In this document: positions 8,428 to 55,216 of the stretch, one piece after another
Numbering within the stretch: the first letter of the stretch is position 1
Layout: each line of letters begins with the position of its first letter
Program-made: the position numbers and the translations under genes
The notes under the pieces: model-generated
The model's database searches: none
The model's input: only the letters and a program-made list of their open reading frames with translations
What the model was told of the DNA's origin: nothing
From: Mustelus asterias
Lineage: Eukaryota
Reading direction: 5' to 3'
DNA: 64,000 nucleotides
Assembly (NCBI RefSeq): GCF_964213995.1
Contig: NC_135804.1
Coordinates: 111,724,001 to 111,788,000 of the forward strand

Positions 8428-8930
8428 AAGCGGTCACGGACATTCGGCCTCTGACCTTCGGGTAAGCGTTCTCCAAGGCGGCCTTCACGACACACGACAA
8501 CGCAGAGTCGCTGAGCAGAGACTGATAGCCAAGTTCTACACACATGAGGACGGCCTCAACTGGGATCTTGGGTTCATGTCACACTATCTGTAACCCCCAC
8601 GACTTGCCTGGGCTTGCAAAATCTCACTAACTGTCCTGTCTGGAGACAATACACATCTCTTTAACCTGTGCTTAATGCTCTCTCCACTCACATTGTCTGT
8701 ACCTTTAAGACTTGATTAGCTGTAAAGACTCGCATTCCAATCATTATTTTGTAAATTAAGTTTGTGTCTTTATATGCCCTGTTTGTGAACAGATCTCCCA
8801 CTCACCTGACGAAGGAGCAGCGCTCCGAAAGCTAGTGGTGTTTGCTACCAAATAAACCTGTTGGACTTTAACCTGGTGTTGTGAGACTTCTTACTGTGTT
8901 CATCCCAGTCCAATGCCGGCATCTCCACAT
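8428..8930 (+). mobile_element. Penelope-like element 3' fragment (family A)
   Basis: C-terminus of the endonuclease region (RRVAEQRLIAKF.THEDGLN.DLGFM), 3' UTR, hammerhead motif, tail ...CCGGCATCTCCACAT; homologous to 10310-10940. Confidence 0.85.
8801..8840 (+). ncRNA. Minimal type I hammerhead ribozyme motif
   Basis: CAC-CUGACGA-A-GGAGC(agc)GCUCC-GAAA-GC-UA-GUG. Confidence 0.75.
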
Positions 8931-10309
8931 GCTGAATCATACCCAGAAGTGCATCTATTTACTGATCTTCTTACTCACTGTTAAAAATTGCATTTCTAAT
9001 TGTGGCCGTTCCCACAGGGAAAATTCAAGAACCCTTGTGGTAAATTGAGACCAGCCAATACTATACTATCAACAAGCTGAAAATCAAGTTTAATTGTTTT
9101 AGATTCTGGCATTTTATGTTAACGTCAGGCACTATTAATAACAAGAGTTGCTGACACAAGCCTGCTAAATCATAAATAAGCACAATTTATAAAGCTAATG
9201 AAATTGATTTTTGAATTACTTGTAACAATTTGATAAAAGCATTTCTGAATATGAAATATCCTCTCAAAACATTTTAATGAATCATCTGTTAAGCTGTCTA
9301 GTGGGTAAACTCCTGCAACAGAAAAGGCTATTTGCATAAGCAAAACCAGAACTTGTTGAGAATTTATTCCCCAATAAAATGGTCCAAAAGGTGAATCTTC
9401 CTTTTTTAAAAAATTATGTTTCATGCCTCAACACCAGACACAGTCCAAAATGACTTACCCAATAGGATTTTCCACATGCTGTATATTTAAACAAGATAGA
9501 TTTGTTACTGAAAGATAGCACAGAAAAAGCACTTAATGGGTAAATGTGGGATTATGCTGTGCTTGGCAACAAGGTAAAGAACTGAAATGGGAATTTTTAA
9601 AAAATCACAAAGCTGAATAACATCAATTCTTTATCTTTTGGCTATTTCTATCCCAGCTTCCTCTCATTCTGAAATAGTATTAATATCAATTTCAGAGCTC
9701 AGAGAGAGTCAATTCTGTAACTATTTTAGTGGAACAGATAATACACTGCAAACGGTTCCCTTTTAGTGCATCTGCTACGCAGTACTTGATAGGCCAGAAA
9801 TTACTGGAAATGTAACGAGAAGTTTAATGCACACACCATTATTAGTGTGTAAACAACCCAGCAATTTCTGGTGAGGCAGAAATACCGTGTGTGTTGCAAA
9901 TCAAGTGTCTTGTCACAAATTGCTGGATGATTTGCACCGCTACACCATTTACCTCATAAAAATGACAGTGTACCATCAAACTCCAAGCGATTTAAGAAAA
10001 TACTGCCCACATTCACCACAAGAAGTTAATTGCGATACTTCACATTAGTTTAGAAAAGTATCCTCTGAAGCGGAGGTGTTAAAGCTGCAAAGGGATTTGT
10101 ATGTATATTAAAGTTATGCACCGGTTCAAGAAGGCAGCTCACCTTCTTAAGGGTATTTAGGGACAGGCAATAAATGCTAGCCTAGTAAGCAATGCCCACA
10201 TCCTTTCAATTTGTTTTTCAAATGTTGGCTAAGCTTGAAGGACATCATGAGTTAAGAGGTCAGGCTCAAGGAACCAAGAGAAGACCTCAGTCCTGGGATC
10301 CATGGGAAT

Positions 10310-10940
10310 ACAGTAAGAGTTTTAACAACACCAGGTTAAAGTCCAACAGGTTTATTTGGAAGCAAATGCCATTAGCTTTCGGAGCGCTGCTCCTTCGTCA
10401 GATGGAGTGGATATCTGCTCTCAAACAGGGCATACAGAGACACAAAATCAAGTTACAGAATACTGATTAGAATGCGAATCTCTACAGCCAACCAGGTCTT
10501 AAATATACAGACAATGTGAGCGGAGGGAGCATTAAACACAGGTTAAAGAGATGTGTATTGTCTCCAGATAGGACAGCCAGTGAGATTCTGCAAGTCCAGG
10601 AGGCAAGCTGTGGTTACTGATAGTGTGACATGAACCCAAGATTCTGGTTTAGGCCGTCCTCATGTGTGCGGAACTTGGCTATCAGTTTCTGCTCAGCGAC
10701 TCTGCGCTGTCGTGTGTCGTGAAGGCCGCCTTGGAGAACGCTTACCCGAAGATCAGAGGCTGAATGCCCGTGACCACTGAAGTGCTCCCCCACAGGAAGA
10801 GGACAGTCTTGCCTGTCGAGCGGTGTTCATTCATCCGTTGTCGTAGCATCTGCATGGTTTCCCCAATGTACCATGCCTCAGGACATCCTTTCCTGCAGCG
10901 TATCAGGTAGACAACGTTGGCTGACTCTCTGCATCTCCAC
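10310..10940 (-). mobile_element. Penelope-like element (family A) with GIY-YIG remnant and 12-bp TSD
   Basis: ANVVYLIRCRKGCPEAWYIGETMQMLRQRMNEHRS; ATCCATGGGAAT at 10298-10309 and 10941-10952. Confidence 0.9.
10369..10410 (-). ncRNA. Minimal hammerhead ribozyme motif
   Basis: CCAU-CUGACGA-A-GGAGC(agc)GCUCC-GAAA-GC-UA-AUGG. Confidence 0.75.
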
Positions 10941-11541
10941 ATCCATGGGAATGACAGGGAAAGACACACTGAATTTGTGTATTGTGTCATGCCTCGACTA
11001 ATGAAGTGTTAAGCATCAGTCTTTATTCTCCAATAAATCTTGTTAGTTTGCCTTCTAAATTAATGCTTGTCCTTTTTGCCAGAATGGTTATTCCTTGATG
11101 AGAAGTTTCTTATTCTGGGGTTTAATATACTCCTTGTGTATCCCTAAACAAAATATTCATTTAATACCTTAGCCCTGCCTCTATGCGCAAATCCACTTTT
11201 TGGACCCTAATCGGCCCCTCTCTAATTTTTACCACTCTTTTACTAAATGAAAAGATTTATGCTTGTGCAATGCCACTGAATCTCTCCAGCCAGAAAGACA
11301 ACAATCTTTCTCTTTCTGTATCTGATTTGTCTCTAATATAACTCGTTTCCTTCTCCATCACTATTCTTTCTCTACTCTCAAATCTCGTTGGTTAAGGAGG
11401 CAGTCTATTAATTCTACCATTCACCAAGGTGCCAGATGCCCCATCAACTTCATTACACCATTTTCTGCTTACACCTCCAGAAATTTACAGCGCAAACATT
11501 TTCAGGCTAAAGGGAGAGAAGTAAAAATCAAATGAGACACC

Positions 11542-12865
11542 TTGTGAAATTATTGGAAGAGATTCTTAGGGACAGGATTTACTCACATTTGGAAACAAAT
11601 GAATTTATTAGTGATTGACAGCATGGTTTTGTGAAGGGGAGATCGTGCCTCACTAACCTGATCATGTTTTTCGAGGAAGTGACGAAGATGATAGATGACG
11701 GTGATGCTGCATACATGGACTTCAGTGAAGCCCTGGTACCTCATGTTAGACTGGTACGAAAGATGAAGTCACACGGGATCAGAGGAGAGCTGGCAAAATG
11801 GATACAGAACTGGCCTGGCCATAGATGACAGAGGGGTGCTTTTCTGAATGGAAGGCTGTGACCAGCGGTGTTCCACAGGGATCAGTTCTGGGGCCTTTGT
11901 TGTTCGTAGTATATAAGATTTGGAGGAAAATGTAGCTGGTCTGATTAGTAAGTTCACAGATGACACAAAGATTGGCGGAGTTGTGGATAATGAAGAGGAT
12001 TGTCAGAGGATACAGCAAGATATAGACCGGTTGGAGACTTGGGCAGAGAAATGGCAGATGGAGTTTAATCCGGACAAGTGTGAGGTAATGCATTTTGGAA
12101 GGTCCAATGCATGTGGGAATTATACAGTAAATGTAGAACCCTTAGGAGTATTGACAGGCAGAAAGATCTGGGCATACGTGTCCACCGATTACAAAGTGAC
12201 AATGCAGGTGGACAAGGTAATGAAGGCGGCTTACAGCATGCTTCCTTCATCGGTCAGGGCATTGAGTATAAAAATTGGCAGGTCATACTGCAGCTGTACA
12301 GAACCTTAGTTAGGCCTCATTTGGAATATTGTGTACAAATCTGGTCGCCACACTACCGGAAGAATGTGGATGCTTTGGAGAGTATACAGAAGAGGTTTAC
12401 CAGGATGTTGCCTGGTCTGGAGGATATTAACTATGAGGAAAGGTTGGATAAACTCGGTTTGTTCGCACTGGAACGACACAGGTTGAGGGGTGACTTGATA
12501 GAGGTTTACAAGATTATGAGTGGCATGGACAGAGTGGATAGTCAGGTGCTCTTTCCTACGGTAGAAAAGTCAAGTACTAGGGGGACATAGGTTTAGGGTG
12601 CATGAGGAAAAGTTCGGAGGAGATGTGCGAGGCAAGTTTTTTTTCACACTGAGGGCAGTGAATGTCTGGAGCGTACTGCCCGGGGAGGTGGTGGGAGCGG
12701 GTACGATAGCCGCATTTAAAGGGGCATCTAGATGAACACATGAATAGGATGGGAATGGAAGGATACGGACTCTAAGTGCATACGGTTTTAGTTTAGGCAG
12801 GCATCATGATCGGCACAGGCTTGGAGGGCTGAAGGGCCTGTTCCTGTGCTGTACCGTTCTTTGTT
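11542..12865 (+). mobile_element. CR1/HER1-type LINE, 5'-truncated and frameshifted
   Basis: [43 protein letters not shown]; 3' end GAAGGGCCTGTTCCTGTGCTGTACCGTTCTTTGTTC. Confidence 0.92.
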
Positions 12866-14763: not shown

Positions 14764-15437
14764 AAAAACTGCCAAACAGCTCCGGGTAAAGCATCAGCAG
14801 ATAATGAGCCAAGGACCTGCTTTTGGGCAGAGTCAACATGGCACAAGAGCTCAATATTAAAAAGAAATAGTGCGTCAACTTGAATTAACTTTTAACAGGC
14901 CAAAAATGGAAAAGATTACATTCTCCTGGTGTCCTGGTCAAAATTTATCCCCCATCTATTAAATGCTGATTTATCTGATTACTGTTTGTGGGATATGACT
15001 GCATGCAGAAGTTGCTCCCATGTTTGCCGACATACAAAGTGACTGCACTTCCAAAATAATTACTTGGTTGTGAAATATTTTGGGATATCCCAAGAATGTG
15101 TAAGGTTCGATATAAATCAAAGTTTAATACAAATCCTTCATTAAAGAAATGGAAATTTGGACTTTCTCAATCTAGCAAAATTGCAATTGCTATCTAGGGG
15201 CAAGAAACATGGGGACGGTTAGCAAGATAGTTCTAAAGCTGCACTCAATATGCAAACATACTAAATTCAGATAAAGTTTCCTTTAAGATGCACTTTTATG
15301 AATTCTGATTTCCAGCAGTATGCTCATCAGCATTCATTTGAGAATCTGGGCTGCTCAGCAATATCTATTCTTCCTACTGTCTCACTTCATGTCACATCTG
15401 GTTGGAATACTAGTTTTCAAATGCTTGGGATACCAAG

Positions 15438-15625
15438 CCAACACAGAAAATGCTGAGAATATCCAGCAGGTCAGTCAACATATGTGGAGAGACAAAGATG
15501 GAGTTAACTTTGCAGGCTATAGGCCCACATTAACTCTCTTTTGTTTACTATCTTCACAGCTGCTGCCTGACTGGCTGAAAAAATATTTTCTGTTTCATTC
15601 CAGATTTCCGGTAGCAGCAGTACCA
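15438..15625. mobile_element. Degenerate palindromic PLE-end element (family B)
   Basis: ACAGAAAATGCTG..CAGGTCAG..GGAGAG..GAGTTAAC followed by its imperfect inverse and tail TTCCAGATTTCC. Confidence 0.55.
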
Positions 15626-16642: not shown

Positions 16643-16644
16643 AA

Positions 16645-16800
16645 AGGCAAAATACTGCCCTGCTGGGAACTTGAAATTAAAGTACAAAATGTTGGAAATG
16701 CTCAGTGGGTCTGGCAGCATTTGTGGAGAGGAAAACAAAGTTATCATTTCGAGTTGAATATGACTCTTCAGCGTCGTTAATCCTGTTTCTCTCTCTACTT
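16645..16800 (-). mobile_element. Degenerate PLE end (family B)
   Basis: GCAAAATACTGC..AAAATGTTGGAAATGCTCAG..TCTGGCAGCATTTGTGGAGAG. Confidence 0.55.
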
Positions 16801-17343
16801 GAACGATGTAAGGTGCATCTGAATCAAGGTTAACTGGATGTGAACTAAGTTCCCATTTAAAATAAGTTAAATCAATCTGTTTGCAGTTTCTGCAGTTCTT
16901 TGGACACGGACGCTCAGCATTATTTTTTTGACAGTGTCACTCAGTAACCTGCCACTAGGTGGTGCATAAGCATGGTTGGTTAACTCTATTGATTTTTCTT
17001 CCCTCTTGGTTTGGCATGGGGTCTGACAGAAGAAAACCCTTCACCACCTTTGCTGAGCTCCATATCTGAAGAGAAAATGGAATTTAGCGTATTACCATGA
17101 GTCTATAGCCTTTAAAAACATACTGTAGTGCACTGGGGCTTAGAACAACATGTCAGAAATGTACAACAATTCACTTCTTAATTTATGTAAACAGTTAACA
17201 GAAAGAATATAGAACATTGTATGAAAATCTTCGAAACAACATAATTTATGCTATTCCATAATTAAAAGTCCCTTGAGAAAACTGGAAATTTTCCAGAGAA
17301 AGGCATTTCTTCAATAAACAATTTGTTTTTCTTAATCTTCACA

Positions 17344-17462
17344 TCAGAGGTCGATTTTTTCCTCATATGCACACTTGCACGAGGCCCCCTGACTGTCCAG
17401 GTAGGGTTTGCATCCCAAATGCATAACAGCATTGAAAAGTAATTCTACAGCACGATCACAAG
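17344..17462 (-). CDS. PLA2G12A: Group XIIA-type secreted phospholipase A2, last coding exon
   Basis: tttttgtag| (A)CDRAVELLFNAVMHLGCKPYLDSQGASCKCAYEEKIDL*; matches the C-terminus of PLA2G12A. Confidence 0.93.
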
Positions 17463-19116
17463 CTACAAAAAAATAGAAAAATAAAATTAGGCTTATTCCT
17501 TAGAAGCAATTAACATTAAATAAAAATAACTGCTTTTAAATAGAAATAAGGACAGTGGATTTGGAATTTCTACTCTCAATGCGTGATCAGGATTTTAAAT
17601 AATTTTATCTAATTACGGCTCAAAGTTCTCACGTGTATTTGTTCATGACACAGCTTTCCAAATTTTAGCATGGCAATATAACTGGTTGGAAAACACTGTG
17701 CTGCATATTGTAATATCATAATGAAAACAATACTCTGCCTCTTCAATTCAAAATGACTATACTACCCTCTGTAAAGCAAAAATTTTGATGCACTTGACCT
17801 ACATGCCATACTTCTGAAAATAACATTACATCCAACCCACAAAACTGAATTAATTCAGTATCAAGGATAACATTTCTTTGAACTTGTCTTCTCACGATTG
17901 CCTTGTCTCTAACGGAAAACTGCGCATGTTCCCATAAATTTAAGTTCAGTTGCAATTGTAAAATTAAGTATACATAGACTTTGGTGTACCTTACTAAACC
18001 AGACTCAGACATATGTTGTGTGAGACCTTTTAAACTTCATCACTATCTGTAGAGACAACCATGCTTTAAATTTAAAAATAGGCTTTGATATACTGATTGT
18101 ATTATTTAATTAGTGGTTTTCAAAGTCTAAAGCCACATCCCAGTGACTTGGGATCACAGTAAAAGATGGCTTCACATTTGCATTACTGTACCTTCTGCAT
18201 TCCAAAAACACAAACATAAAACAACTTGTCTACAAAGTTGCACCAGGAACAATGGTCTTGGAGGTGTATGAATGAGGGCCATCACCTGTCACATTAGCAA
18301 AGCATCCAGATATTCACCTGGCCTCTCAACTGGCTGGAGACAAACCATTAGACATAGTCAATTGGACAATGTGACTCTGGATGAGAAAGGGATTCCCAGC
18401 CATGATGTAATCAAATTACAACTGGAATATACTGGCCATGACCATATTTGGGTCACTGTGCATTTGGAGGGAGGATCATGTGACAAGCCAACCATCTGCA
18501 TTTAAGCATCTTCTTTCTGCAGATCAGCTCAAGCAACTGAGATGCTGAAGGAACAAGACCTTGAATGGGACTCCCACTCTCAATTTCTCCACCCACGAGC
18601 AAATTTTGAACCCTTCTGCTGCTTTTCGACCCATGCAGCTATCTTCAGAAGAATAGATAAATTGTCCAACTACAGTTTAAACTGCCTTGATGCTAAAACC
18701 AGCAGGACCGAGTGACAGCAGCAAGACTACCTAGTTCAGCCTGAAGCTAGCCAAGTTTCCAACCTACAGGATCCCTATACTCTTTAATTTTACCGGACTT
18801 TAAAATGCTTAATCTATCCTCACACTGTAATCCAGTCATGTGTGTACGAACTTCCAGTGTATGTGTGAGAAAGCCGGAGCATTTTTATTATTTTTAGTAG
18901 TTTTTTTAAGCCGGGTTAACTACAATAAAAACCATCATCTTTTCTTTTTAAAAGCTCAAGAAAACCTGTCTGATTGTATCTCTCATGGTCACAGCACACA
19001 AACAGTTAAGCACTCTCAGAATTGACAAACGTATCCTTTTTTTAAAAAACCTGTTAAGATTAAATGAGTGGGAGAGGGGAACCATTTAACCCTCCTCACT
19101 TGGTCATACAGCAACT

Positions 19117-19186: not shown

Positions 19187-19226
19187 CTGCCAAGTTCCAT
19201 GACAGTGGACTACGGTGTCTGTTTGA

Positions 19227-19779
19227 GTGGCACAGTGGTTAGCACTGCTGCCTCACAGCGCCAGGGACCCAGGTTCAATTCCCAGCTTGGGTCACTTGTC
19301 CCTGTGTCTGCATGGTTCCTTCCCACAGTCCCAAGCTGTGCAGGTTAGGTGGATTGGCCATGCTAAATTGCCCCTTAGTGTCTGGGGGACCAGCTGGGGT
19401 AAATGCATGGGGTTATGGGGATAGGGCCTGGGTGGGATTGTGGTCAGTGCAGACTTGATGGGCCGAATGGCCTCCTTCTGCACTGGATGATTCTATGATC
19501 AGTTACTTGGGTCACTGTCTGTGTGGAGTTTGCACATTCTCCTCGTGTCTGCGTGGGTTTCCTCCGGGTGCTCCAGTTTCCTCCCACAGTCCAAAGATGT
19601 GCAGGTTAGGTTGATTGGCTATGCTAAAATTACCACTTAGTGTCCTGGGATGCGTAGATTAGAGGGTTAAGAAGTAAAATATGTAGGGATATGGGGGTAG
19701 GGCCTGGGTGGGATTGTGGTCGGTGCAGACTCGATGGGCCGAATGGCCTCTTTCTGTACTGTAGGGTTTCTATGATTTC
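19227..19779 (+). mobile_element. Two tandem HE1-type V-SINEs (19227-19499; 19506-19779)
   Basis: First copy has an internal deletion; second lacks the tRNA head. Confidence 0.88.
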
Positions 19780-21370: not shown

Positions 21371-21536
21371 CTTGTACAGTCGAATCCATTCCTAATGTTT
21401 TCTGTACATTTCTGCAGATTGTGGACAGGCAATACTGAAACACTCCATCACAGTCCTGTTTAGTGTTACCACAAGTATCATAACAACGATCATGCTGATT
21501 GCAGCATTTTGTCATTGAAGGAATGCCCACGTCCAG
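21371..21536 (-). CDS. PLA2G12A: Group XIIA-type PLA2, coding exon 3 (catalytic His-Asp)
   Basis: atag|LDVGIPSMTKCCNQHDRCYDTCGNTKQDCDGVFQYCLSTICRNVQKTLGMDSTVQ; 166 nt; donor AAG|GCAAGT. Confidence 0.95.
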
Positions 21537-22874
21537 CTATTTATAAAAAATGGACATAAATGTGAATGAGAGTGGGTAGTATCACATGATAAAATCTGCA
21601 GTCAACAATAAAGATGGAAAACGTTGGCCCTCAGTATGTTCTAATACCAAAAACTGATCATAGGCAGCGCTTGGTGGTTACAACCACAGACATGACGGGC
21701 AGCAGTTGTGAAACAAAAAGATAGCACGGGCAAATTTGGATTCTATCTTTTACTTATTTAACTGGTGTCACTTTTAGACCCTCACACCTCTTAACTTCTA
21801 CCACACTCTTCAGCCAATCAATTTTCTGAAAGAGGAATAGAAACATGGTTACTAACTCTAATCAATAAGCGACATGAAGAAAATAGGGCAGAGAGAGGAG
21901 CAGGATGAGATGGATGTAGATAGATGTGGCAATTTTTCTCCCCTCTTCTCCCTGCAATCTCTTTTTAGGATCCGGTTCTATGGACACCAGCAATCCTTTA
22001 GCATGTTGCCCAAGCATTTATTCTTTGTGTGTGAGCCCTATCAGTTATACAACCAGGGAGGGATGACAGATGACCTCGATCCACAATTTTATTCTCCCCA
22101 TTTTCAAGTAAAAGTTACTAAACAGTAATCAGAATCTAGAACCCAGGCTTCTCGGAACCCACTTCTTGTTCCATAAGATCAAATTTCAATTGTAGCGAAG
22201 TCAATAGAAACATAAAGCTTAAAACTGCGACATTCTGATATGTATGGATCAGAGTAATGCTTTTTACAGGAACCTTCCTTAATATTTTATTTATTGAAAT
22301 GTCAGACATAAAATTGTGAGATCCTCTAATTGATCTTCTTTGTTCGTGACATAACTTTAATACCTTGCTATTCTTTCTCTTCACCTTCCCCTTGCCAGGG
22401 GTTTCATTCTTCCCTCTCTCTACCCTCACCACCCCAAATAAATCAAGTTGGCAGTCCCTCCATCTCTAACGGAAACATTTTGTGACTGGTTAAGTTGCAC
22501 TCTTCCTTCATTCTCTATCTTTTTCTGTGAGGGAGAAGTTTGCCCAGAACATTCGGTCAAGCCTTTACAAGAATCTGTATTTATGTAGCTTGTTTAACAT
22601 AACCAAATACCCAGAGTGTTTCACATGACAGCAGGAATAAAAAAAATTAGGAAAGTTGACTAACAGCACAAAGACTCATGAGAAGATGTATATCTCATGG
22701 ATTAAAAGGGACAGTAGCAACATAGGAACAACATTGGCTGAGTAATAAGAATGGATATTTTTCAGGCTGGAGGAAGGTTTGCAGTGGAGTTTCCCAGGGA
22801 TCAGTATTGGGCCCTTGCTTTTCCGGATATATTTTAATGACCTAGATCTTGGTGTGCAGGGGATGAATTACGAT

Positions 22875-23177
22875 GCAGTGGCATAGTGGTTAGCACTGCT
22901 GCCTCATAGCACCAGGGACCCAGGTTCGATTCCCAGTTTGGGACACCGTCTGTGTGAAGTCTTCACGTTCTCCCTGTGTTTGCATGAGTTTCCGCCTGGT
23001 GCTCCAGTTTCCTCCCACAGTCCGAAAGATGTGCTGGTTAGGTGCATTGGCCATGCTAAAATTCTCCCTCAGTGTACCCGAACAGGCGCCGGAGTGTGGC
23101 AACTAGGGATTTTCACAATAACTTCATTATAGTGTTAATGTAAGCCTACTTGTGACACTAATAAATAAACTTAAACT
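22875..23177 (+). mobile_element. V-SINE, alternative-tail subfamily
   Basis: Same head and tail as 4008-4290. Confidence 0.85.
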
Positions 23178-23860: not shown

Positions 23861-24670
23861 CACCCGAAAAGTTTGCGAATGATACAAGACTTGGAAGCAT
23901 TGTAAACTCCGAGGAGGACAGTGTGGAACTTCAAAAGGACATAGACAAGTTGGTGGAGTAGGCAGATAGGTGGCAGAAGAAATTTAATGCAGAAAAGTAT
24001 GAGGTGATTTATTTTGATAGGAAGAACATGGAGGGGCAAGATAAAATAAAGGGTACAACTCTAAAGAGCGCGTAGGAGCAGAGGGTCCTGGTTGTATAGG
24101 TGCATAAGTCATTAAAGGTGGCAGGACATATGGAGAGAACAGTTGATAAAGTATTCACTATCCTAGGCTTAATTAACAGGGGCATAGTACAGTCCAAGAG
24201 TAAAGGAGTTATGCTGAACTTGTATAGGACACTAGTTAGACCTCAGTTGGAGTATTGTGTACATTTCTGGGCGCCACACTATGGGAAGGATGTGAGTGCT
24301 TTGGAGGGAGTGCAAAAATGGTTTCAGGGATCAGAAACTTCAGTTATGAAGATAGATTGGAGAAGTTGGTGCTGTTCTCCTTGGAGAGAAGAAGGCCAAG
24401 AGAAGATTTGATAGCGATGCCCAGTCCCTTGTGATTTTTGATAGAGTAGGTAGGGAGATTAACTTGTAAAAATCTGACCAATTTGAGGAGACTTTTAATG
24501 GCCAAAAAGCTGTAGGCAAATTTAGTGAGGGAATATCAAATGGAAGGGCTGAGACAACAGAAATTTTTTCATCAAATGAAGAACATGAACTAACGAAGGG
24601 TGTAAATTAGAGGATACTAAGGGCTAGAGCTGGATGACCACAGTGCATGATATGGGACATATAACTAGAG

Positions 24671-26758: not shown

Positions 26759-29700
26759 TATCACAGAATCCTACAGTGCCGAAGAGGCCCTTCAGCTCAT
26801 CAAGTCTGCACTGATGCATGAAATGCCCTGACCTGTCCACCTAATCCCACTTGCCAGCAATTGGCCCATAGCCTTGAATGTTATGGTGTGCCAAATACTC
26901 ATCCAGGTACATTTTAAAGGATGTGAGGCATCCCACATCCACCACCCTCTCAGGCAGCGCATTCCAGACTGTCACCACCCTCTGAGTAAAAAGATTTTTC
27001 CTCAAATCCCCCCTAAATCTCCCACCCCTCACTTTTAACTTGTGTCCCCTTGTAACTGATCCTTCAACTAAGGGGAACAGCTGCTCCTTAGCTACCCTGT
27101 CCATGCCCCTCATAATCCTGAACACCTCAACCAGGTCGCCCGTCTTCTCTGCTCCAACGAAAACAACCCAAGCCTATCCTCTCTTCATAACTTAAATGTT
27201 TCATGCCAGGCAGCATCCTGGTGAATCTCCTCTGCACTCCCTCCAGTGCATTCACATCCTTCCTATAATGTGACGACCAGAACTGCACGTAGTACACCAG
27301 CTGTGACCTCACCAAAGTTCTATACAACCTCATCATGACCTCTGCTTTTGTAATGCGTACCCCGATGCACCACCCTATTTACCTGCCTTTCGGCCTTCAG
27401 ACATCTATGGACAAACACGCCCTTTGTTCTTCGGAACTTCCCAGTGTCAGATCTTTCATAGTATACTTCTTTGTCAAATTACTCCTTCCAAAGCGCATCA
27501 CCTCACTTTTCAGGGTTTAATTCCATCTGCCACTATATCTTCCTGTAACCCAAAACACTCAGCCTCATTGTTAACCATCCAGCCAATCTTCATGTCATTG
27601 GCAAACTTACTGATCCTACCCCCCCCCCCCCCCCATAGTCATCTATGTCATTTATATAACTGATGAACTGGTCGCTAGCCTCCAATCACTAAAGCAGCCG
27701 TCTGTCAACACCCTCTGCCTCCTACCACTAAGCCAATTATGTATTCACCTTGTCAGATCACCCTGAATCCCATGTGCATTAGCCTTCTTCGTAAGTCTCC
27801 CATGTGGGCCTTTGTCAAAGGCTTTGCTGAAATCCATGTAAACTACATTAACCGCACTAACCTCATCCACACACTTGGTTACATGCTCAAAAAATTCAAT
27901 CAAATTTGTTAGGCCTCCCTTTGACAATCCCTGACTATCCCTGATCAAACCTTGCCTCTCCAAATGGAGATGGATTCTCTCCTTCAGAATCTTTTCCAGT
28001 AGTTTCCCAACCACACGCGAGATTCACTGGTCTGTAGTTCCCTGGCTTGTCTCTACAACCTTCTTAAATAGTGCGGCCACATTAGCTGTTCTCGAATCCT
28101 CTGGCACCTCCCCGGTAAGAAGTCTCACAACACCAGGTTAAAGTCCAACAGGTTTACTGGTAGCACAAGCCACCAGCTTTCGGAGCCGTGCCCCTTCATC
28201 TCACCTGATGAAGGGGCAGGGCTCCAAAAGCTGGTGGCTTGTGCTACCAAGTAAACCTGTTGGACTTTAACCTGGTGTTGTGAGACTTCTTGCTGTGCTT
28301 ACCCCAGTCCAACGCCGGCATCTCCACATCATGACTTTCCCGGTGGCCAGGGAGGAATTGAAAATTTGGGTAAAGCCCCTGCAACCGCCTCCCTTGCTTC
28401 CCACACAACTTGGGACACAATTCATCCGGACCTGTAGATTTGTCCACTTTTAAGCCCGCCAATACCTTGTCCCTGTGATAATTTTCTCTAGAGCCTCACA
28501 GTCTCTCTTCCCCCCCCCCACCCCGAGTTGCATAGCTAACTCCTCATTCTCATGAGTGAAGACACATGTGTAATATTCATTTAACACCCTACCAATGTCC
28601 TCTGCCTCCACCCACAGATTTCCCCCTTGGTCCCTAATTGGCCCTACTCTTTCCCTGGTTATCCCCTTCCCATTGATAAATTTATAGAATATCTTTGGAT
28701 TTTCCCTACTTTTACCAGCCAGAGCTTTCTCATATCCCCTTTGCTCTCCTAATTGATTTCTTAAGCTCCATCCTGCACTTTCTGTACTCCACTAATGCCT
28801 CCACAGACTTACTCCCCTTATACCTGTTAAAAGCCTCTTGCTTTCATTGTATCCTGAATATCTCTGGTCATCCATGGTTCTCTGGGTTTGTTACAACTAT
28901 TACCCTAAAGGGAACATGTTTGGCCTGTACCCTCCCCATTTCAGCTTTGAACATCCCCCACTGCTCTTCGGTAGATTTCCCCACAAGTAACTTGTTCCAC
29001 TCTACCTTGGCCAGAGCCTGCCTAATTTTGTTCAAATCTACTCTCTCCTAATCCAAAACCTTTTTCTGCAACTTGTCAATTTCTTTGAGCATAACAAATT
29101 TGAATTGAACCATGCTGTGGTCGCTATCACCAACATGCTCCCCTACTAACACATCAACTACCTATCCGGCTTCCCCAGAATTAGGTCCAGCACAGCTCCC
29201 TCCCTTGTTGGATCCTCTACATATTGACCCAAGAAGTTTTCCTGTATACATTTTAAGAACTCTACTCCATCTAAGCCATTAACACGATGGCTATCCCAAT
29301 TAATGTTGGGAAAGTTGAAATCAGCTAATATAATTACCCTCATTATTTTTTACATCCCTCTGCGAATTGCACACATATTTGCTCTTCAATTTCCCGCTGA
29401 CTATCTGGGGGTCTATAATAAACACCTAGCAACGTAGCTGTCCCTTTTTTATTCCTAAGCTCTACCCACAAAGCTTCATTTGATGTCCCCTCCAACATAT
29501 CCTCTCTCCTTACTGCAGTAACTGCCTCCTTAACTAATAATGCAATGCTTTTACCCCCTCTTTTACCCCCTCTTCTGCGTCGCCTGAACATTCTATATCC
29601 CAGGACGTTGAACTGCCAATTCTGCCCCTCACTCAACCACATCTCTATGATGGCTATTATATCATAATTACACATGTCAATCCTCGCCCTTAACTCATCT

Positions 29701-37962: not shown

Positions 37963-37974
37963 CTATATCATTAA

Positions 37975-39810
37975 ACTAGGTCATGGCTGATCTCCTACCT
38001 CAATGCTCTCCCCATATCCCTTCATGTCCTTAACATCTAGAACTCTATTGATTTCTATTTTGAACAAACTCAATGACTGAACATCCATCGTCTTCAAGGG
38101 CAGAAAATGCCAAAGACTCACCACCCTCTGAGTGAAAAAATTCCTCTTCATCGCAGTCCTAAATGGTCTACCCCTTGTTCTGAGACTGTGTCCTCTGGTT
38201 CTAAGCCCCCAATCAGGGGAATCATCTTTCCTGCAGCTATTCTGTTGAGCCGTGTAATGATTGCTTCAATGAGATCATCTCTCATTCTTCTAACCTCTGG
38301 AGAATACTTTTTTTTTAAAATGACTTCATGGGAAATGGGTGACACCTGCAAGGCCAGCATTTATTGCTCATCCCCAATTGCCTTTGAACGGAGTAAATGC
38401 CACACCATTTCAGAGGGCAGTTAAGAGTCAACCACATTACTGTGGGTCTGGAGCCACATGTAGACCAGACTAGGTAAGGAATGCAAGATTTCCTTCCTTA
38501 ATAGGACATTAGTGAACCCAGATGGGTATTTACGACAAGCAATATTAGTTTCATGATCACCATCACTGAGACAAGCTTTATATTCCAGACTTGCTAATTG
38601 AATTCAAATTCCACCAGCAGCCACGGTGGGATTTGAACCCATACACCCAGAAAGGTCTCTGGATTACTTGTCTAGTGACATCATGACACCACCATCTCCC
38701 TGCAGTGGGATATAGGCCAAGTCTTCTCAGTTGCACCTCATAGAACAGCCTCACCAGCCCAGGAATCAATCTGGTGAACCTTTGTTGCACTTCCTTGATG
38801 GCAAGTATATCCTTTCTTGGATAAGGAGACCTAAACTGTACATTTTCCCTTTTTTGGGATCAAGCCAAGGTTCTATGCAACTGTAGCAAGACTTCCATAC
38901 TCCTGTACTCAAATCTTCTTGCAATAAAAGCCAACATACCATTTGGTTTCCAAATTCCATACTTCACGCGCACATTAGTTTTCAGTGACCCATGAACAAG
39001 GTGGATTACTTCAAATTTTTCCACATTATATTCAATCTGCCTTATTCTTGCCCACTCACTCAGTCAGTCTAAATCCCCTTGAAGCGTCTTTGCATCCTCC
39101 TCACAACTCTCATTTCACCTAGTTTTGTGTCATCAGCAAAGTTGGAAATATTACATTTGGATCCCACATCCAAATAATTGATATTGATTGTGAATATCTG
39201 GGGCTAAAACACTGATCCTTACAGTATCCCACTAGTCCCACAGTAACTTCATTGCAGCGTTAATGTAAGCCTACTTGTGACTAATGAATTAACCTTAATA
39301 ATACTTTAATAAATCCATTACAGCCATCTCTTTCAACACCCAGGGATATAGATCATCAGGTCCATGGGGATTTGCCAACTTTCAGTCCCATTAATTTCTC
39401 CTGTACTATCTTTTACTGCTTTCTTTCAGTTTCTCATTCATGCTAATTCCTTGATTCTCTCAGATTTCTAGGAGGTTTTTTTATATCTTCCTCCAGGAGA
39501 ACAGACACAAAGTATTTGGTTAGTTTCTCTACCATTTCCTTATTTCCCCATTATAACTTCTCCTGTCTCTGCCTATAATTTGTCTTTGATAATCTTTTCC
39601 TTTCTGCAAACCTACAGAAGGCTTTACAGTCAATTTTTATGTTTCTCATTGGTTTACTTTCATATTCAATTTTCCTTTTATTTATCAATCTCTTTATCCT
39701 CCTTTGCTGAATTCTAAAATGCTTCCAATCCTCGGGCTTTTTGGCAACTTTATAAGCCTCTTTCTTTTAATCTAATAAAATCTTTAACATCTCTTGTTAG
39801 CCACGGTTGT
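37975..39810 (-). mobile_element. Decayed CR1 LINE with nested insertions (other-family LINE end at about 38320-38700, SINE tail at about 39238-39290)
   Basis: RRMRDDLIE, QQRFTRLIPGL and FADDTK remnants. Confidence 0.7.
39266..39589 (+). repeat. 324-bp local duplication, copy 2
   Basis: See copy 1. Confidence 0.92.
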
Positions 39811-40147: not shown

Positions 40148-40346
40148 CATCACTGCATTTGTATTTGCAGAGCCCATCCTCTCCACCTAGCAAATCCAGT
40201 GCTGCGTTCAGATACATGTCAATTTTATGAATTCCGTTCCGAATGGTTTTCAGCTTCCCCAGCCAATCTTTGTAGTGTGCCTCTTCTGAGTGGCACCCAT
40301 GACTCCTCAAAATAATTCCCACAAGCACACAAATCAGCAAATGCAT
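40148..40346 (-). CDS. PLA2G12A: Group XIIA-type PLA2, coding exon 1 (signal peptide)
   Basis: MHLLICVLVGIILRSHGCHSEEAHYKDWLGKLKTIRNGIHKIDMYLNAALDLLGGEDGLCKYKCSD|gtgagt; four exons total 561 nt = 186 aa + stop. Confidence 0.95.
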
Positions 40347-42840: not shown

Positions 42841-43854
42841 TCTTACTCTAAATCTCCATCAAAATTAACATTATAATGTACGACGGATAAGGTTGAGGAC
42901 TGATTCGAAGGCTAGGATGTGGTCTCAGGAGTGTGTTGGAACAATTACAAATATTCGAAACTTAAGATTGCACAGAGCTGAACTCTTCACTTTGTTGCAG
43001 CCCAAGACACCTCAAACTTAAAAAATAAATGTGTGAGATCGCAAGCAAGTCAGGCTACGATTCAAAATATCACTCAGGGTGTCTCCGATCGCACAGAGTG
43101 TAGTCCAACTACACTTTCAACTCTATCCAATGAGCAACACACAGTGTTGACGTGACCAGCACTACCTATCACCACGCTCCCAAACCACTGATATCACAAC
43201 CAGCAATTAAACTGCCCGCTGTTCTAGATAAGACACAAACTTCTCATTCCATTCAAAATTTAATGTTTTGAGTAGAGGGTTGCTCATGCCTTTTCCCAGA
43301 TTCCAGTTACACCCAAATCACTTTGGGGAATGCTTTTTAACAGGAAATACTTGAAACAGACATCAATGCATATTATAGAGAAAAGTACCTTAAATATTTG
43401 AAAACAATAAAAGTTATGAGAAGAGAACAGGACAGTTGGATTCTTTTTAGTTGCCGAGCAAAAAACACAATTAATCTTGCAACTTACTTCTGTGTCAGCT
43501 CTTTGCTACAGATCCATGGCAGCAAATGTGGGGGACTATTTAAATTTAAGAAGCACAAAAGAACGATTGGTACAACTAATTTTGTTGAGAGCAAAATTAT
43601 ACCAGATTTAAGACCACATTTCCAATATTTACTCAAATGCTGGCCTTTAAATAAATATAACATAGATTAATGTAGCTCAATAGTTTAAAACTTTTCATAA
43701 CTAATTCCATTAAAATATGATGCCTTTCTAATTATTCATATTCATAGAAACATATATTGCTCATTTGAAAAATAATCTATCCTTCACTTGTTTATATTTG
43801 TTTCTTGATTTTCTCTCAATCATCTCCTTCTTACTATCAAAAGAGAAAACACTG

Positions 43855-43992
43855 GAAGCTTTGACAAAGGGTCATCTGGACTTGAAACGTCAGCTCTTTT
43901 CCCTCCTTACAGATGCTGCCAGACCTGCTGAGATTTTCCAGCGTTTTCTCTTTTGGTTTCAGATCCCAGCATCCGCAGTAATTTGCTTTTAT
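43855..43992 (+). mobile_element. PLE end (family B) with decayed hammerhead
   Basis: AGCU-UUGACAA-A-GGGUC(aucug)GACUU-GAAA-CG-UC-AGCU, followed by CAGATGCTGCCAGACCTGCTGAG..GCAGTAATTTGCTTTT. Confidence 0.75.
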
Positions 43993-44290
43993 CGTTCTTC
44001 CTATCCTTGATTTGGTCCAGTCTTGTCTTCCTCGCCTCTTTACTTGTCTCCCATTTCAATTGTCCCATCTTTCTTATTCATCTCTCTCTTCCCTTCTCCG
44101 TCTATCTCCTGTCACCTTGGTTCAGCCGTGAGAAATTTGAGAGTTTAAATCTCACCGTGGGCTTCATCGCAAAACTGACACTCAAGTGTCTTTCAGATTA
44201 AACAGAGTTCTTATCTGCCTGCTCAGGTGGTCATATTCAAATAGCATGGAACACTCCCTCAACTACTATCACCAAAATGATTATTTGATC

Positions 44291-44497
44291 CAAAAACAGA
44301 AAATGTTGGAGAAACTCGGCAAGTCTTGCAGAGAGAATAGACTCAACATTTCGAATCAGAGCTCTGACGAAGGGTTGCCCTGATGTAAACGTTGGCTCTA
44401 TTCTCTCTCCACAGATGCTGTCCGACCCGCTGAGATTTTCCAGCATTTTCTGTTTTTGTTTCAGATTCCAGCAGCCGCAGAATTTTGCCTTTTTATT
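44291..44497 (+). mobile_element. Palindromic mini-PLE (family B) with 14-bp TSD
   Basis: ATGATTATTTGATC at 44277-44290 and 44498-44511; imperfect inverted arms; CTGACGA core at 44364; inserted in an old SINE. Confidence 0.85.
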
Positions 44498-44779
44498 ATG
44501 ATTATTTGATCGTTCACTCACTCATTGACTATTTGTGGGGCATTTATGAGCAGATTATTCATAGTATTTGCTTAAATCGCAAGCGATCGCACTTCCAAAG
44601 TAATCCATCGCTTGTCGAAGTGCTATCTTGGTGATACGAGAAGCACTTTATAAATGGAGTTTGCTTCTTTCCCCTCCCCCTCGCTGTATTCTACTCTCTC
44701 TCTCTATATATATATTTCATTTCTTGGTTAACTTTTCTTTCGCTCTTTCTCAAATCCTGAACATGCACGGAAACTGCTG

Positions 44780-50629: not shown

Positions 50630-51455
50630 TAACTTACTATTAAAGCTTTTAATCTTGAACTCATCAGGACACCGACACAAAATATACCATCAGTAAAGGG
50701 AACAACAATTTATACTGCATAAGAAGAGTGCTGATTAGTTGGCAAGTGGAGACTGATTGTTAGAGGCATTGCCTTGGAGAATGCAGCAGAGAACAGTTAA
50801 CTTGTAACTGCTAAGCTTTTATTTCAAATTCAAACCAGATAAGCACTTGGCTGTTCTCTGCATCTGTTCCTATGATGTTACCTTCCATATCAGTGTTTCT
50901 GATGTGTCTTCCTTTTTCTTGAGTCAAGGTTCTTCCCCAACACTGGTTGACAGGGCCCTCACCCTTTTCCCTCTCTTCCAGAACAATGGTAAGGTTCCCT
51001 GCATCCTTACTTTCACCCTAACAGCTTTGCATTCAATGGATAATTTTCTGCCATTTATGCCAACCGCAGCATGATGTTACTACCAAACACAACTTCTCCT
51101 TAGCTCCCCTGTTAGCATTCTGTAGGGACCGTTCCTGGCATAATACCGTTGTCCACTCCTCATCACCTTGCCGTTCAATTGCAGGAGGTTATCTCCTTCC
51201 TCACTGTGGAAGGCCCCAAACACTCCTTTCAGATGAAGCAGTGATTCAGTCGCACTTTTTTTCAATTTGATCTATTGTATTTGCTGCTCCCAATGTAGTC
51301 TCCTCTACATTGGGAAACACAGACTGGGTGACTGCTTTACAGTAACCTTCGCTTAGTTCGTAAGCATGACCCCGAATCTTCCGGTCGCTTGCCCTTTCAA
51401 TTCACCATCTTGCTGTCATGTCCACATTTCTGTCCTCGGCCTGCCACAGTGTTTC
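50630..51455. mobile_element. Decayed PLE fragments
   Basis: 50850-51455 is homologous in opposite orientation to 55520-56260; degenerate minus-strand hammerhead core CTGATGA at about 50660-50666. Confidence 0.7.
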
Positions 51456-51469
51456 AATGGGAATCCAGT

Positions 51470-52180: not shown

Positions 52181-52306
52181 AAGTAATGCTTTTTTAAAAT
52201 TCTTTCATGGGTTGTGGGTGTTGCTCATCCCGAAATACCCCAAAGAATGTGGTAATGAGGCACTTTCCTGAACCGCTGAAATCTACCTGGTGCAAGTGTA
52301 CACTAG

Positions 52307-52645
52307 ATCATAGAACCCTACAGTGCAGAAAGAGGCCATTCGGCCCATCGAGTCTGCACCGACCACAATCCCACCCAGGCCCTACCCCCATATCCCTACA
52401 TATTTTACCCACTAATCCCTCTAACCTACTCATCTCAGGACACTAAGGGGCAATTTTAGCACAGCCAATCAACCTAACCCGCACATCTTTGGACTGTGGG
52501 AGGAAACCGGAGCACCCGGAGGAAACCCACGCAGACACGAGGAGAATGTGCAAACTCCACACAGACAGTGACCCGAGTGGGAATTGAACCCAGGTCCCTG
52601 GAGCTGTGAAGCCGCAGTGCTAACCACTGTGCTACCGTGCCGCCC
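52307..52645 (-). mobile_element. Young full-length HE1-type V-SINE
   Basis: CpG-rich, complete head to tail. Confidence 0.93.
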
Positions 52646-53611: not shown

Positions 53612-53941
53612 AGAATCATAGAATTCCTACAGTGCAATGGAGGCCACTCGACCCATCGAGTCTGCACCAACAACAATCCCACTCAGGCCCTATACCCATA
53701 ACCCCACATATTTACCCCGCTAATCCCCCTAACCTACGCATACGGGACACTAAGGGGCAATTTAGCATGGCCAATCAACCTAACACACATCTTCAGACTA
53801 TGGGAGGAAACCAGATCACCTGGAGGAAACCCACACAAACATGGGAAGAATGTGCAAACTCCACACAGTCACCCAAGCTGGGAATCGAACCCGGGTCCCT
53901 GGAACTGTGAAGCAACAGTGCTAATCACTGTGCCACCATGC
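53612..53941 (-). mobile_element. HE1-type V-SINE
   Basis: Full length, more diverged. Confidence 0.88.
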
Positions 53942-54187
53942 CAGGAAGTCACTCTCACCTCCCCTCTTGAGTCCAGTTATTTTGTCAGTGTTTGGCCCAA
54001 TGCTTTAATGAGGTCAGGAGCCACGCGACCCTGGTAGAATCCAAACTGAGCATCAGTGAGCAGCTAATTTCTGTATAAGTACAGCACACTGGCATTGTTG
54101 ACAAAATTTCCATTACTAATGATTGTGAAGAGGCTAATGAGATGGTAATTGACCGGATTAGGTTTGTCCTGCTTTTTGTGGACAGGA

Positions 54188-54441
54188 TGTGGAGATGCCG
54201 GCGTTGGACTGGGGTAAACACAGTAAGAAGTTTAACAACACCAGGTTAAAGTCCAACAGGTTTATTTGGTAGCAAAAGCCACACAAGCTTTCGAGGCTCT
54301 GAGCCCCTTCTTCAGGTGAGTTCTGTTTGTGAACAGAATTCCCACTCACCTGAAGAAGGGGCTCAGAGCCTCGAAAGCTTGTGTGGCTTTTGCTACCAAA
54401 TAAACCTGTTGGACTTTAACCTGGTGTTGTTAAACTTCTTA
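54188..54441 (-). mobile_element. Palindromic mini-PLE (family A): perfect 98-bp inverted arms, 36-bp tail, 14-bp TSD
   Basis: Arms 54224-54321 / 54344-54441; TTTTGTGGACAGGA at 54174-54187 and 54442-54455. Confidence 0.93.
54344..54385 (+). ncRNA. Minimal hammerhead motif (mirror copy on the minus strand at 54280-54321)
   Basis: CAC-CUGAAGA-A-GGGGCU(cag)AGCCUC-GAAA-GC-UU-GUG. Confidence 0.75.
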
Positions 54442-54827
54442 TTTTGTGGACAGGACATACCGCAGCAATCTTCCACTTTGTTGGGTAAATGCCAGAGTTA
54501 AAGGTATGCGAAGCCGTGGTTAAACCACACCTGAAATATTGTATTTAGTTTTGAGCACCACATGTTACAAAGGATATATTGATCTTAGAAAGAGTTTATA
54601 GGTAGATTTATGCGAATTATATCTGGACTCCAAGAGTTAAGCTACAAAGTTATTAAATGATATGAGACAAAGGCAGGTACATCTAGAGAGGATGTCTACT
54701 TGTGTAACAGAACTGACTAGAAAGCTGTTCAACCATGTGAGTTTCAAGTTAAAGTGCAACAAGTTGTCATTGGGGAATAGCTTTGTGCCAATGATGCCAT
54801 ACCAACATTTCATATCAAGGAGAAATC

Positions 54828-54976
54828 ATCTAACCTACACATCTTTGGACTGTGGGAGGCACCCAGAGGACACAGGGAGAACATGCAAATTCCACACAGA
54901 CAATCACCCAAGGCTGCAATTGAACCCAGGTCGCTGGCGCTGTGAGGCAGCAATCATTCCACTGTGCCATCATGCT
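54828..54976 (-). mobile_element. V-SINE 5' fragment
   Basis: Degenerate head and core. Confidence 0.7.
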
Positions 54977-55076
54977 ACCCATGAAGGTTGTTGATAGCTT
55001 CAAATATTTTGGTTTCACAATCACCAGCAATGCCAAAATCTACACATGAATTGCAAAAGATGTAGATGTTATTCAA

Positions 55077-55216
55077 CACAACAAGAACAGAAAATGCTGG
55101 AAAATCTCAGCAAGTCTGACAGCATCCGCGGGAAAGGAATAGAGCCAACATTTCGAGTCCAGATGAACCTTCGTCAGAGCAAAGAGAATCAGCAGAGATT
55201 TATACAATGACCGGAG

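Follow-up and report, generated by a model that had tools for sequence, protein, structure and literature searches.

The class of minimal hammerhead ribozymes carried by PLEs, its covariation and the dimer model have been in print since 2014, when Cervera and de la Peña (PMC4209133) described the layout of these motifs, their occurrence in opposite-strand pairs and their weak cleavage as dimers, and reported them from the fish elements Xena, Poseidon and Neptune. No shark is named in the text and supplement of that paper examined here, and its other supplement may list more species. The role of PLE hammerheads is still debated (PMC8557442, PMC11167929), and in one case cleavage is reported to depend on the element's protein (PMC11167929). 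Non-LTR retrozymes, reported from one chondrichthyan genome, also carry type I hammerheads that stem from the pseudo-LTRs of PLEs (bioRxiv 10.64898/2026.07.22.740005). Our literature search, which lacked most subscription papers and Repbase, returned no paper devoted to shark PLE hammerheads.

Here, we analysed a 64-kb stretch of shark DNA, hereafter the window, in which a preliminary description had placed several hammerhead copies. The window adds examples of PLE hammerheads and not a new kind of system, and its overall importance is modest; nevertheless, very abundant shark families with several subfamilies would be good material for a covariation and selection test. We estimate a probability of roughly 85% that these are the 3' pseudo-LTR hammerheads of two Neptune-type PLE families, selected in the master elements and decaying in the window.

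Minimal hammerhead motifs in the window

A strict minimal-hammerhead descriptor returned 4 perfect sites in the 64-kb window and none in each of 500 block-wise dinucleotide shuffles. The C3 residues (Hertel numbering) lay where copies had been announced, at 8806(+), 10401(-), 28205(+), 43861(+), 44364(+), 54315(-), 54350(+) and 55177(-). The core C3-U4-G5-A6-N7-G8-A9, G12-A13-A14-A15.1, U16.1-H17 was perfect in five of these eight listed copies (8806, 10401, 54315, 54350 and 55177) and altered in the other three. Position N7 varied between C, A and U, as had been proposed, and N17 was A, U or C in 7 of the 8 copies, with predicted cut residues at 8834 (A), 10373 (A), 54380 (U) and 54285 (U). 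All eight harboured an A as the extra nucleotide after A9, a minimal hammerhead feature, and an open helix I of 3-6 contiguous pairs. Predicted helix II pair probabilities were 0.79-1.0 in six copies and near 0 in 55177 and 44364. The three helix II versions quoted in the preliminary description were present, although one of them, GGGUC/GACUU, comes from the 43855 copy that it called dead. An intramolecular helix III was lacking, and the palindromic 15.1-16.1 segment was AGCU in the five listed family-A copies and ACGU in two of the three listed family-B copies; the palindrome claimed for all copies thus holds for seven of the eight, the exception being 55143(-) (C3 55177). Judged by sequence, the flagged sites are minimal type I hammerhead motifs at the 3' ends of two PLE families. 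They derive from 7 insertions, only 3 of which contain a perfect motif, and 5 of the 8 listed copies are damaged or redundant.

Rfam gave 11 matches in the window at E up to 10, none of them to a hammerhead model. With a covariance model (R1) trained on 4 family-A insertions, the 6 family-A copies were the only matches below E = 0.48; family B was not recovered by this family-A model (55141-55183 at E = 6.3). Looser look-alikes at 18648(-), 15330(-), 21315(-), 37732(-), 39136(-), 39359(-), 3745(+) and 17066(+) were rejected, as none of them satisfies the descriptor or carries a PLE tail.

Family-A copies

The family-A features are as follows:
8423..8930, + strand: 5'-truncated PLE end with GIY-YIG C-terminus, 3' UTR, hammerhead and long tail
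8802..8838, + strand: intact minimal type I hammerhead, C3 8806, N17 (A) 8834
10310..10942, - strand: 5'-truncated insertion with GIY-YIG domain, 3' UTR, hammerhead and short 3' end
10369..10405, - strand: intact minimal hammerhead, C3 10401, N17 (A) 10373
28115..28200, - strand: inverted short-ended arm of an insertion, hammerhead without C3, U4 and helix I 5' strand, with G17
28201..28333, + strand: long-tailed arm of the same 28 kb insertion, within intron 1 of the PLA2G12 gene
54188..54321, - strand: long-tailed arm of an inverted insertion, intact hammerhead 54282-54318, C3 54315, N17 (U) 54285
54323..54441, + strand: short-ended arm of the 54188..54441 insertion, intact hammerhead 54347-54383, C3 54350, N17 (U) 54380

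The 8423..8930 end is 87% identical to 10306-10784, was matched at 8420-8581 by tblastn of the relative P0040, and coincides with a read depth confined to 8422-8949 in contigs of public sequencing runs. Its hammerhead contains a helix I of 4 bp, including one G.U, and a helix II of 5 bp. The 10310..10942 insertion, whose shark relatives are 80-88% identical, retains an inverted long-tail remnant at about 10930-10942(+) and is flanked by a 10-bp target duplication (10300-10309 / 10943-10952); helix I of its hammerhead consists of 4 Watson-Crick pairs, with U-A at 2.1:1.1. Upstream of 10401(-) and 8806(+), 44 of 374 aligned bases differ, and both motifs are intact. The 28201-28237 hammerhead, bearing G12 to A plus G17, is likely inactive to judge from these residues. 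Its inverted partner, 28115-28200(-), had been missed earlier and also has G17; a target duplication of about 11 bp with 2 mismatches was recognized around this insertion by eye and was not returned by our script. The arms at 54280/54344 are identical at 98 of 98 positions on opposite strands, between 14-bp target duplications (54174-54187 / 54442-54455); being arms of a single insertion, they are not independent copies. A cis-dimer of the two was discarded, because each strand holds one of the motifs and together they are predicted to form an extended hairpin (about -199 kcal/mol). A microRNA reading of the inverted pairs, raised by sub-threshold Rfam miRNA-hairpin matches, was likewise rejected because each hairpin is made of both arms of one insertion. 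Besides those matches, Rfam gave two weak tRNA matches.

Family-B copies

The family-B features are as follows:
43857..43991, + strand: PLE end, hammerhead 43857-43895 with U3-A8 core, C17 and G.U at 10.1:11.1
about 44283/44291..44357, - strand: inverted, decayed short arm of an insertion
44358..44499, + strand: arm with hammerhead 44358-44399, G12 lost, helix II broken, helix I 6 bp
55080..55180, - strand: 3' end with hammerhead 55144-55180, C3 55177, core intact
16643..16775, - strand: heavily decayed family-B-related end with hammerhead remnant, C3 16771
15421..15540, - strand: heavily decayed family-B-related end, hammerhead unrecognisable
55497..57005, - strand: frameshifted, 5'-truncated Neptune-type PLE reading frame with reverse transcriptase (RT), cysteine linker and GIY-YIG

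Tail-anchored BLAST revealed the decayed copies at 16771(-) and 15500(-), both absent from the preliminary description, and the 44283-44357(-) arm. None of the 5 family-B copies spanning the hammerhead contains an intact motif. Core changes were indeed present in the three copies that had been called probably dead, 28201, 43855 and 44360 (C3 28205, 43861 and 44364), but in 43855 the two "core mutations", U3 and A8, can pair with each other, and this core is described as a natural variant (PMC4209133). Moreover, the 55143(-) copy must be counted as a fourth decayed copy: AUGU replaces its palindrome, its helix II contains a U.C mismatch and its helix I is only 3 bp long. The 43857..43991 end may be flanked by a 14-bp target duplication, with 2 mismatches (43825-43838 / 43992-44005), and a 12-bp one (44279-44290 / 44500-44511) flanks the 44291..44499 insertion. 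A further family-B relic, 50847-51461(+), ends before its hammerhead.

Parent elements

GIY-YIG sequences were found upstream of 8806 and 10401, and RT, linker and GIY-YIG upstream of 55177. In family B, tblastn of P0005 and P0024 located the RT followed by a C-terminal GIY-YIG at 55497-57005(-); in family A, GIY-YIG is present in the window and the RT was seen in the relative P0056. Pfam, run directly on the broken frames of the window, returned no family. The best named relatives are shark proteins with a CX4CX2C linker, and the proteins of the two families are only about 30-35% identical to each other. The cysteine linker occurs at about 55870(-) in family B and in the family-A relatives P0047, P0048, P0053 and P0056; a CX2-5CxxC linker between RT and EN is given as a mark of Neptune and Nematis (PMC8557442), of which the vertebrate distribution favours Neptune. 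Both families are thus most likely Neptune-type PLEs, and the assignment of the motifs to PLE ends of more than one family was confirmed. The exons of PLA2G12 lie at 17-40 kb of the window, with 10401(-) in sense with the gene and about 7 kb past its stop codon.

Architecture of the insertions

All window copies are 5'-truncated or frameshifted, and the motif lies about 70-100 nt from the 3' end in both families. The insertions are often arranged head-to-head, a long-tailed arm facing a short one. Exact target duplications of 14, 12 and 10 bp were found among the 4 inverted insertions; in 3 of the 4, both arms end within about 30 nt of C3, and 3 of the 4 amount to little more than hammerhead plus tail. 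In public-run contigs, 8 of the 10 opposite-strand joints listed have one end at 8785-8807, and two 3' ends were observed, at about 8895-8899 and 8930, matching the PLE "tail" (PMC11167929). As expected for truncated relics, no complete or tandem element with two direct pseudo-LTRs was found in the window, nor any same-strand copies near enough within one element for a tandem dimer; the nearest same-strand pair, 43861/44364, corresponds to separate insertions 79% alike and 503 nt apart. Copies spanning the cut site continue on both sides of N17, so they were made from RNA uncut at this residue. Both arms of the 28 kb insertion bear G17, a hint that poor cleavability of a template did not preclude its insertion.

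These joints invite the rather doubtful idea that the hammerhead fold marks where reverse transcription stops or switches template, and that the shark families mass-produce 200-260 bp head-to-head "hammerhead plus tail" insertions. If true, the PLE hammerhead would gain a structural integration role apart from cleavage, and the genome would be seeded with 90-100-bp perfect RNA hairpins. Joints near C3 are accounted for equally well by 5'-truncation bias and local palindromes.

Covariation and sequence variants

At 2.1:1.1 the 8806 copy has C-G and the 10401 copy U-A, in agreement with the compensatory helix I swap proposed for these two copies. Covariation within family A was not significant, since its 2 double changes were matched by 68 of 500 shuffles and its covariation score was reached by 55 of 500. 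Between families A and B, both partners differ in 7 of 10 pairs, and pairing is kept in 94% of cells, vs 32-45% with partners slid, a signal that represents one phylogenetic contrast with a structure drawn from the same sequences. The pairing kept between families fits the proposed selection on RNA structure; neither significant covariation inside a family nor selection on these particular copies was evident in the window.

Among the variants listed for contigs of four public runs, 6 variable sites fell within 8802-8840, all at positions that tolerate change. N7 C to U accounted for 28-54% of depth, 10.3 A to G for 12-49%, N17 A to U for 8-36% and 1.1 G to A for 1-63%; the 10.3 change preserves pairing as G.U, and the remaining two sites, 1.5 and 1.6, lie outside helix I. 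A C17 subfamily was present in the loose-end consensus of all four runs. The lack of listed variants at 11 core positions was not significant (P = 0.45). The variants listed include G1.1 to A but not its partner change C2.1 to U; the two sides of the helix I swap were therefore not seen linked across the family. Tail patterns chosen outside the hammerhead, which avoids ascertainment, detected no loci in viral contigs or in two metagenome scans.

Discussion

The best reading of these results is that selection acted on the hammerhead of active master elements and that the window copies are passengers. Following the literature, two motifs of an active tandem element would pair through the 4-nt palindrome, forming helix III in trans; the dimer would cleave inefficiently on the 3' side of N17, probably aided by the element's protein, and cleavage would trim the element RNA out of a longer transcript. 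Purifying selection would operate on the transposing masters, which we propose as the reason why pairing, shown here for two families, is kept between families and subfamilies, and the copies in the window are 5'-truncated insertion products, now decaying. Against this scheme, the dimer fold computed for the four intact copies was 10-20 kcal/mol less stable than the best co-fold. The preliminary description would have given up the ribozyme if no cleavage were seen even as dimers, which is too strict, since published cleavage is weak or protein-dependent.

We consider it unlikely that these motifs are hammerheads by descent only, no longer catalytic and kept as an RT-binding or translation-start fold or as riders of the pseudo-LTR. 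Every copy spanning the cut site came from uncut RNA, G17 is common to both arms of one insertion, and in the anole element mutating the hammerhead is reported to leave in vitro insertion unaffected, with no RNA-seq reads terminating at the cut site (PMC11167929); hammerheads may even simply parasitise PLEs (PMC8557442). However, the single-stranded catalytic residues are perfect in 3 of the 4 family-A insertions and common to two families with such divergent proteins, a conservation that a purely structural role would not obviously maintain, and the prevalence of A, U or C at N17 also argues against loss of catalysis.

It is very improbable that at least one genomic copy is itself selected as a domesticated ribozyme cutting a host transcript, for instance the PLA2G12 read-through RNA at 10401(-). 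The sense orientation of this copy and the intactness of both 10401(-) and 8806(+) despite their upstream divergence would fit, but subfamily variants explain the differences between them, no same-strand partner is close enough for a dimer, and the family read depth, five orders above the unique flanks (not a copy number), is so high that intact copies are expected as young insertions. A chance resemblance multiplied by repeat amplification can hardly be entertained: although the copies are not independent and the Rfam models gave no match, those models appear to require helix III, which is absent from these motifs, a hammerhead at that place is known from PLEs, and the comparison of two distant families, with the full layout at the equivalent position and different stem sequences, already contradicts it.

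Master-selected PLE hammerheads, the reading we retain, can be placed among the published systems, as far as the parts of these sources consulted allow. Identity with non-LTR retrozymes was rejected, as these are head-to-tail tandem units and the copies in the window form no same-strand tandem array, in spite of the shared type I hammerheads. As in inverted pseudo-LTR insertions of EN+ PLEs (PMC8557442, PMC3846280), a 5'-truncated inverted copy lies at the 5' end and the tail is one-ended; unlike them, 3 of the 4 inverted insertions hold little beyond hammerhead and tail, and target duplications are 10-14 bp vs about 8-10 bp. PAc, the Poseidon element of Anolis carolinensis (Frangieh et al. 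2024, PMC11167929), similarly has its hammerhead near the pseudo-LTR/ORF junction, an optional 30-40-nt tail from two reverse-transcription start sites and uncut RNA as template, but belongs to the Penelope/Poseidon clade, with an ORF starting inside the hammerhead, whereas both families here have the Neptune-type cysteine linker and a motif ending about 60-95 nt short of the element end. The minimal hammerheads of PMC4209133 resemble the shark motifs in being type I, without intramolecular helix III and with a short helix I, in the extra nucleotide between 9 and 10.1, the G10.1-C11.1 pair and the palindromic 15.2-16.2 segment, in forming families with compensatory changes and a U3-A8 core variant, and in occurring mostly as single motifs of truncated elements or as close opposite-strand pairs; helix II is 5-6 bp here, vs 7-8 bp in the Schistosoma families.

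Hammerhead motifs in the window

All eight sites proposed in the preliminary description were found. The copies are named below by the position of their C3 residue (Hertel numbering), with the other remains of the two families of Penelope-like elements (PLEs) that carry the motif.

8806 (+), family A copy
10401 (-), family A copy
28205 (+), family A copy, in the inverted 28 kb pair (28115-28333)
54315 (-) and 54350 (+), family A copies, in the inverted 54 kb pair (54188-54441)
43861 (+), 44364 (+) and 55177 (-), family B copies
44291-44357, inverted arm, family B
near 16771 and 15500, decayed ends, family B

Also present as first read were the variation at N7, the replacement of C-G by U-A at 2.1:1.1 of helix I and the three versions of helix II. 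The palindromic layout attributed to the copies was retained in the other listed copies but not in 55177, where AUGU replaces the palindrome and helix II, which has a U.C mismatch, is predicted to stay open. A strict descriptor, which required a perfect core, at least 4 pairs in helix II, Watson-Crick 15.2-16.2, H17 and at least 3 pairs in helix I, matched four sites in the window (8806, 10401, 54315 and 54350) and none in each of 500 dinucleotide shuffles in 2-kb blocks; chance resemblance is extremely improbable.

A single insertion, bordered by a perfect 14-bp duplication, supplies both 54315 and 54350; they are its arms and agree at 98 out of 98 positions. With this and the corrections to 55177, 28205 and 43861, the eight copies represent 7 insertions, 3 of which carry a perfect motif. 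Copy 28205, previously considered probably dead, does have G12 changed to A, together with a second defect, G17, described as strongly impairing minimal hammerheads (PMC3884650). Because G17 occurs in both arms of the 28115-28333 insertion, the template RNA probably had a poor predicted cleavage site already; the G12 to A change is confined to one arm. The core changes that had led 43861 to be called probably dead are also present, U3 with A8, but these residues still pair, and such a pair is described among the core variants that PLE hammerheads naturally have (PMC4209133). It is accompanied by C17 and a 4-bp helix I (43861-43867, +), and the copy also has C11.1 changed to U. This change and G8 to A would each fit CpG decay, and the U3-A8 pair may be either the natural variant or two decay changes.

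Two element families

What distinguishes the families is the sequence that follows the motif on its 3' side. Several had been proposed; there is indeed more than one, but as two comparisons between A and B relatives gave identities of 35% and 30%, the number is two. Upstream of 8806 and 10401 lies the end of a GIY-YIG endonuclease, whose 70-residue C-terminus matches 30 proteins among 64 candidates (identity up to 88%), including P0056, a relative that carries a reverse transcriptase (RT). Family-A relatives have a CX4CX2C linker, and such a cysteine linker is described as a mark of Neptune and Nematis elements (PMC8557442). For family B, a frameshifted RT-linker-GIY-YIG frame was found upstream of 55177 (55497-57005), the RT part of which matches 46 proteins among 2091 candidates. 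Relatives of the element proteins that bear a species name are from the sharks Chiloscyllium, Rhincodon, Stegostoma, Mustelus, Scyliorhinus and Heptranchias, so that the genome can be termed shark-like. We infer the Neptune assignment of both families from vertebrate distribution rather than from a tree.

Relatives of 8597-8790 place the family-A endonuclease end inside annotated isoforms of shark host genes (XRCC5, septin 5a, FAM210B, USP8, FSTL5 and others), which suggests frequent exonisation or annotation noise. Another decayed family-B reading-frame relic (50847-51461, +) ends before its 3' end and has no hammerhead, and a run of about 33 G (55218-55251) lies within the 3' UTR of a family-B element.

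Covariation between and within families

The covariation claimed initially is weaker inside the window than stated, being strong in the one contrast between families but not significant within family A. In the family-A alignment A3 (4 rows, one per insertion, and 8 pairs), 97% of cells were paired and two pairs showed two-sided change, 2.1:1.1 and 10.3:11.3 (A-U, G.U and G-C states), a result that was not significant (pair count reached by 68 of 500 shuffles, covariation score by 55). Addition of three family-B rows, to the exclusion of the two B copies in the worst state of decay and of two arms that are redundant or truncated, gave alignment A5 (7 rows, 10 pairs), with two-sided change in 7 of the 10 pairs and 94% of cells paired, against 32-45% for slid partners; its covariation score was reached by 0/500 shuffles and its pair count by 38/500. 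A5 shows real structure conservation, yet is essentially a single contrast on a structure derived from the same sequences. A covariance model of family A alone recovered all 6 family-A copies and missed family B (E = 6.3).

Contigs from four public runs were aligned to 8350-9050. The 6 variable sites listed for them in 8802-8840 are all at tolerated positions.

Variable sites in 8802-8840 (% of depth where given)
N7, C to U, 28-54%
10.3, A to G, 12-49%
N17 (predicted cut residue), A to U, 8-36%
1.1, G to A, 1-63%
1.5
1.6

A C17 subfamily was also seen in contig loose ends in all four runs. The window variants are thus subfamily states, not accidents of single copies. These data call for caution, however: among the 35 sites listed, no variant fell on the 11 core positions, but this lack is not significant (P = 0.45), and none of those listed was a change of the 2.1 partner.

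Proposed working of the motif

We favour, with a probability of about 0.85, a reading in which these are PLE 3'-end hammerheads, predicted to be catalytic in tandem master elements and under selection there. On the basis of the literature, two motifs of a tandem element would pair through the palindrome to form helix III and cut 3' of N17, at a low rate as RNA alone (PMC4209133; review PMC6765202) or aided by the element's protein; protein help is described in a study where in-vitro insertion proceeds without cleavage (PMC11167929). Nearest-neighbour energies predict that 8806 and 10401 form helices I and II as monomers. In each of the four intact copies, the double-hammerhead fold lies 10-20 kcal/mol above the best co-fold, in energies that leave out tertiary contacts; these values agree weakly with poor predicted activity. 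A fold that is non-catalytic in both families, a reading which partly overlaps the preferred one, is unlikely.

Selection on RNA structure, as originally suggested, is best placed on the masters rather than on the window copies. None of the latter has a second motif on its own strand within one element, the inverted pairs are predicted to fold into long hairpins with energies of about -199 and -164 kcal/mol, and none of the five family-B copies spanning the motif is intact. Domestication as a host ribozyme is very improbable.

Insertion structure and genomic setting

The insertions combine 5' truncation, a head-to-head inverted arm and a long tail confined to one arm, with target duplications of 14, 12 and 10 bp, sharing the signature described for PLE insertion (PMC8557442, PMC3846280). 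The four-run contigs pile up only across 8422-8949, where summed depth, which does not equal copy number, is 10^4-10^7 versus about 3-24 on unique flanks. Loose contig ends are concentrated at 8895-8899 and 8930, corresponding to the pair of 3' ends ascribed by Frangieh et al. to two reverse-transcription starts (PMC11167929). Every copy spanning N17 keeps sequence on both sides of it.

In 3 of 4 inverted insertions (28185-28215, 44340-44372, 54310-54352) the ends of the two arms lie no more than about 30 nt from the hammerhead C3, and 8 of the 10 opposite-strand joints listed in the contigs have an end within 8785-8807. The boldest reading, in which the inversion junction of very short insertions would be set by the hammerhead fold, is unlikely.

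The window consists of vertebrate DNA rich in repeats (41.5% G+C), with tRNA-derived SINE-like repeats, LINE relics and a host gene for group XII phospholipase A2 (PLA2G12; minus strand, about 17.3-40.3 kb), the first intron of which contains the 28 kb pair.

PLA2G12 coding exons (-), the last two approximate
about 40148-40346
25755-25831
21375-21540
17343-17470

The tRNA-headed SINE-like repeat, presumably akin to the shark HE1 family, has about a dozen copies (4114-4298, 7870-8129, 19205-19777, 22856-23080, 24660-25012, 31622-31842, 33607-33943, 34567-34898, 52306-52645, 53613-53946, 54813-54975). A 300-bp direct repeat (37639-37938 and 39266-39565; 99% identical, 1627 bp apart) either arose recently by duplication or was duplicated in the assembly, and 18-bp units form a G+C-rich tandem array at 1030-1227.

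Comparison with known hammerheads

No Rfam model matched these hammerheads, and literature searches on hammerheads in sharks and Chondrichthyes turned up no study dedicated to PLE hammerheads of sharks. A 2026 preprint describes PLE-derived retrozymes in one chondrichthyan (bioRxiv 10.64898/2026.07.22.740005); retrozyme identity was rejected here, as the window contains no tandem units. In sequence and context the motifs are those of PLE minimal hammerheads, and they are predicted ribozymes. They are real, correctly named and of a kind already known: those described by Cervera and de la Pena in 2014 (PMC4209133), with occurrences in fish Neptune and Poseidon elements, share the minimal type I layout, the extra base before helix II, G10.1-C11.1, the palindromic 15.2-16.2 and U3-A8 cores, in families 'full of covariations', and likewise occur as close opposite-strand pairs.
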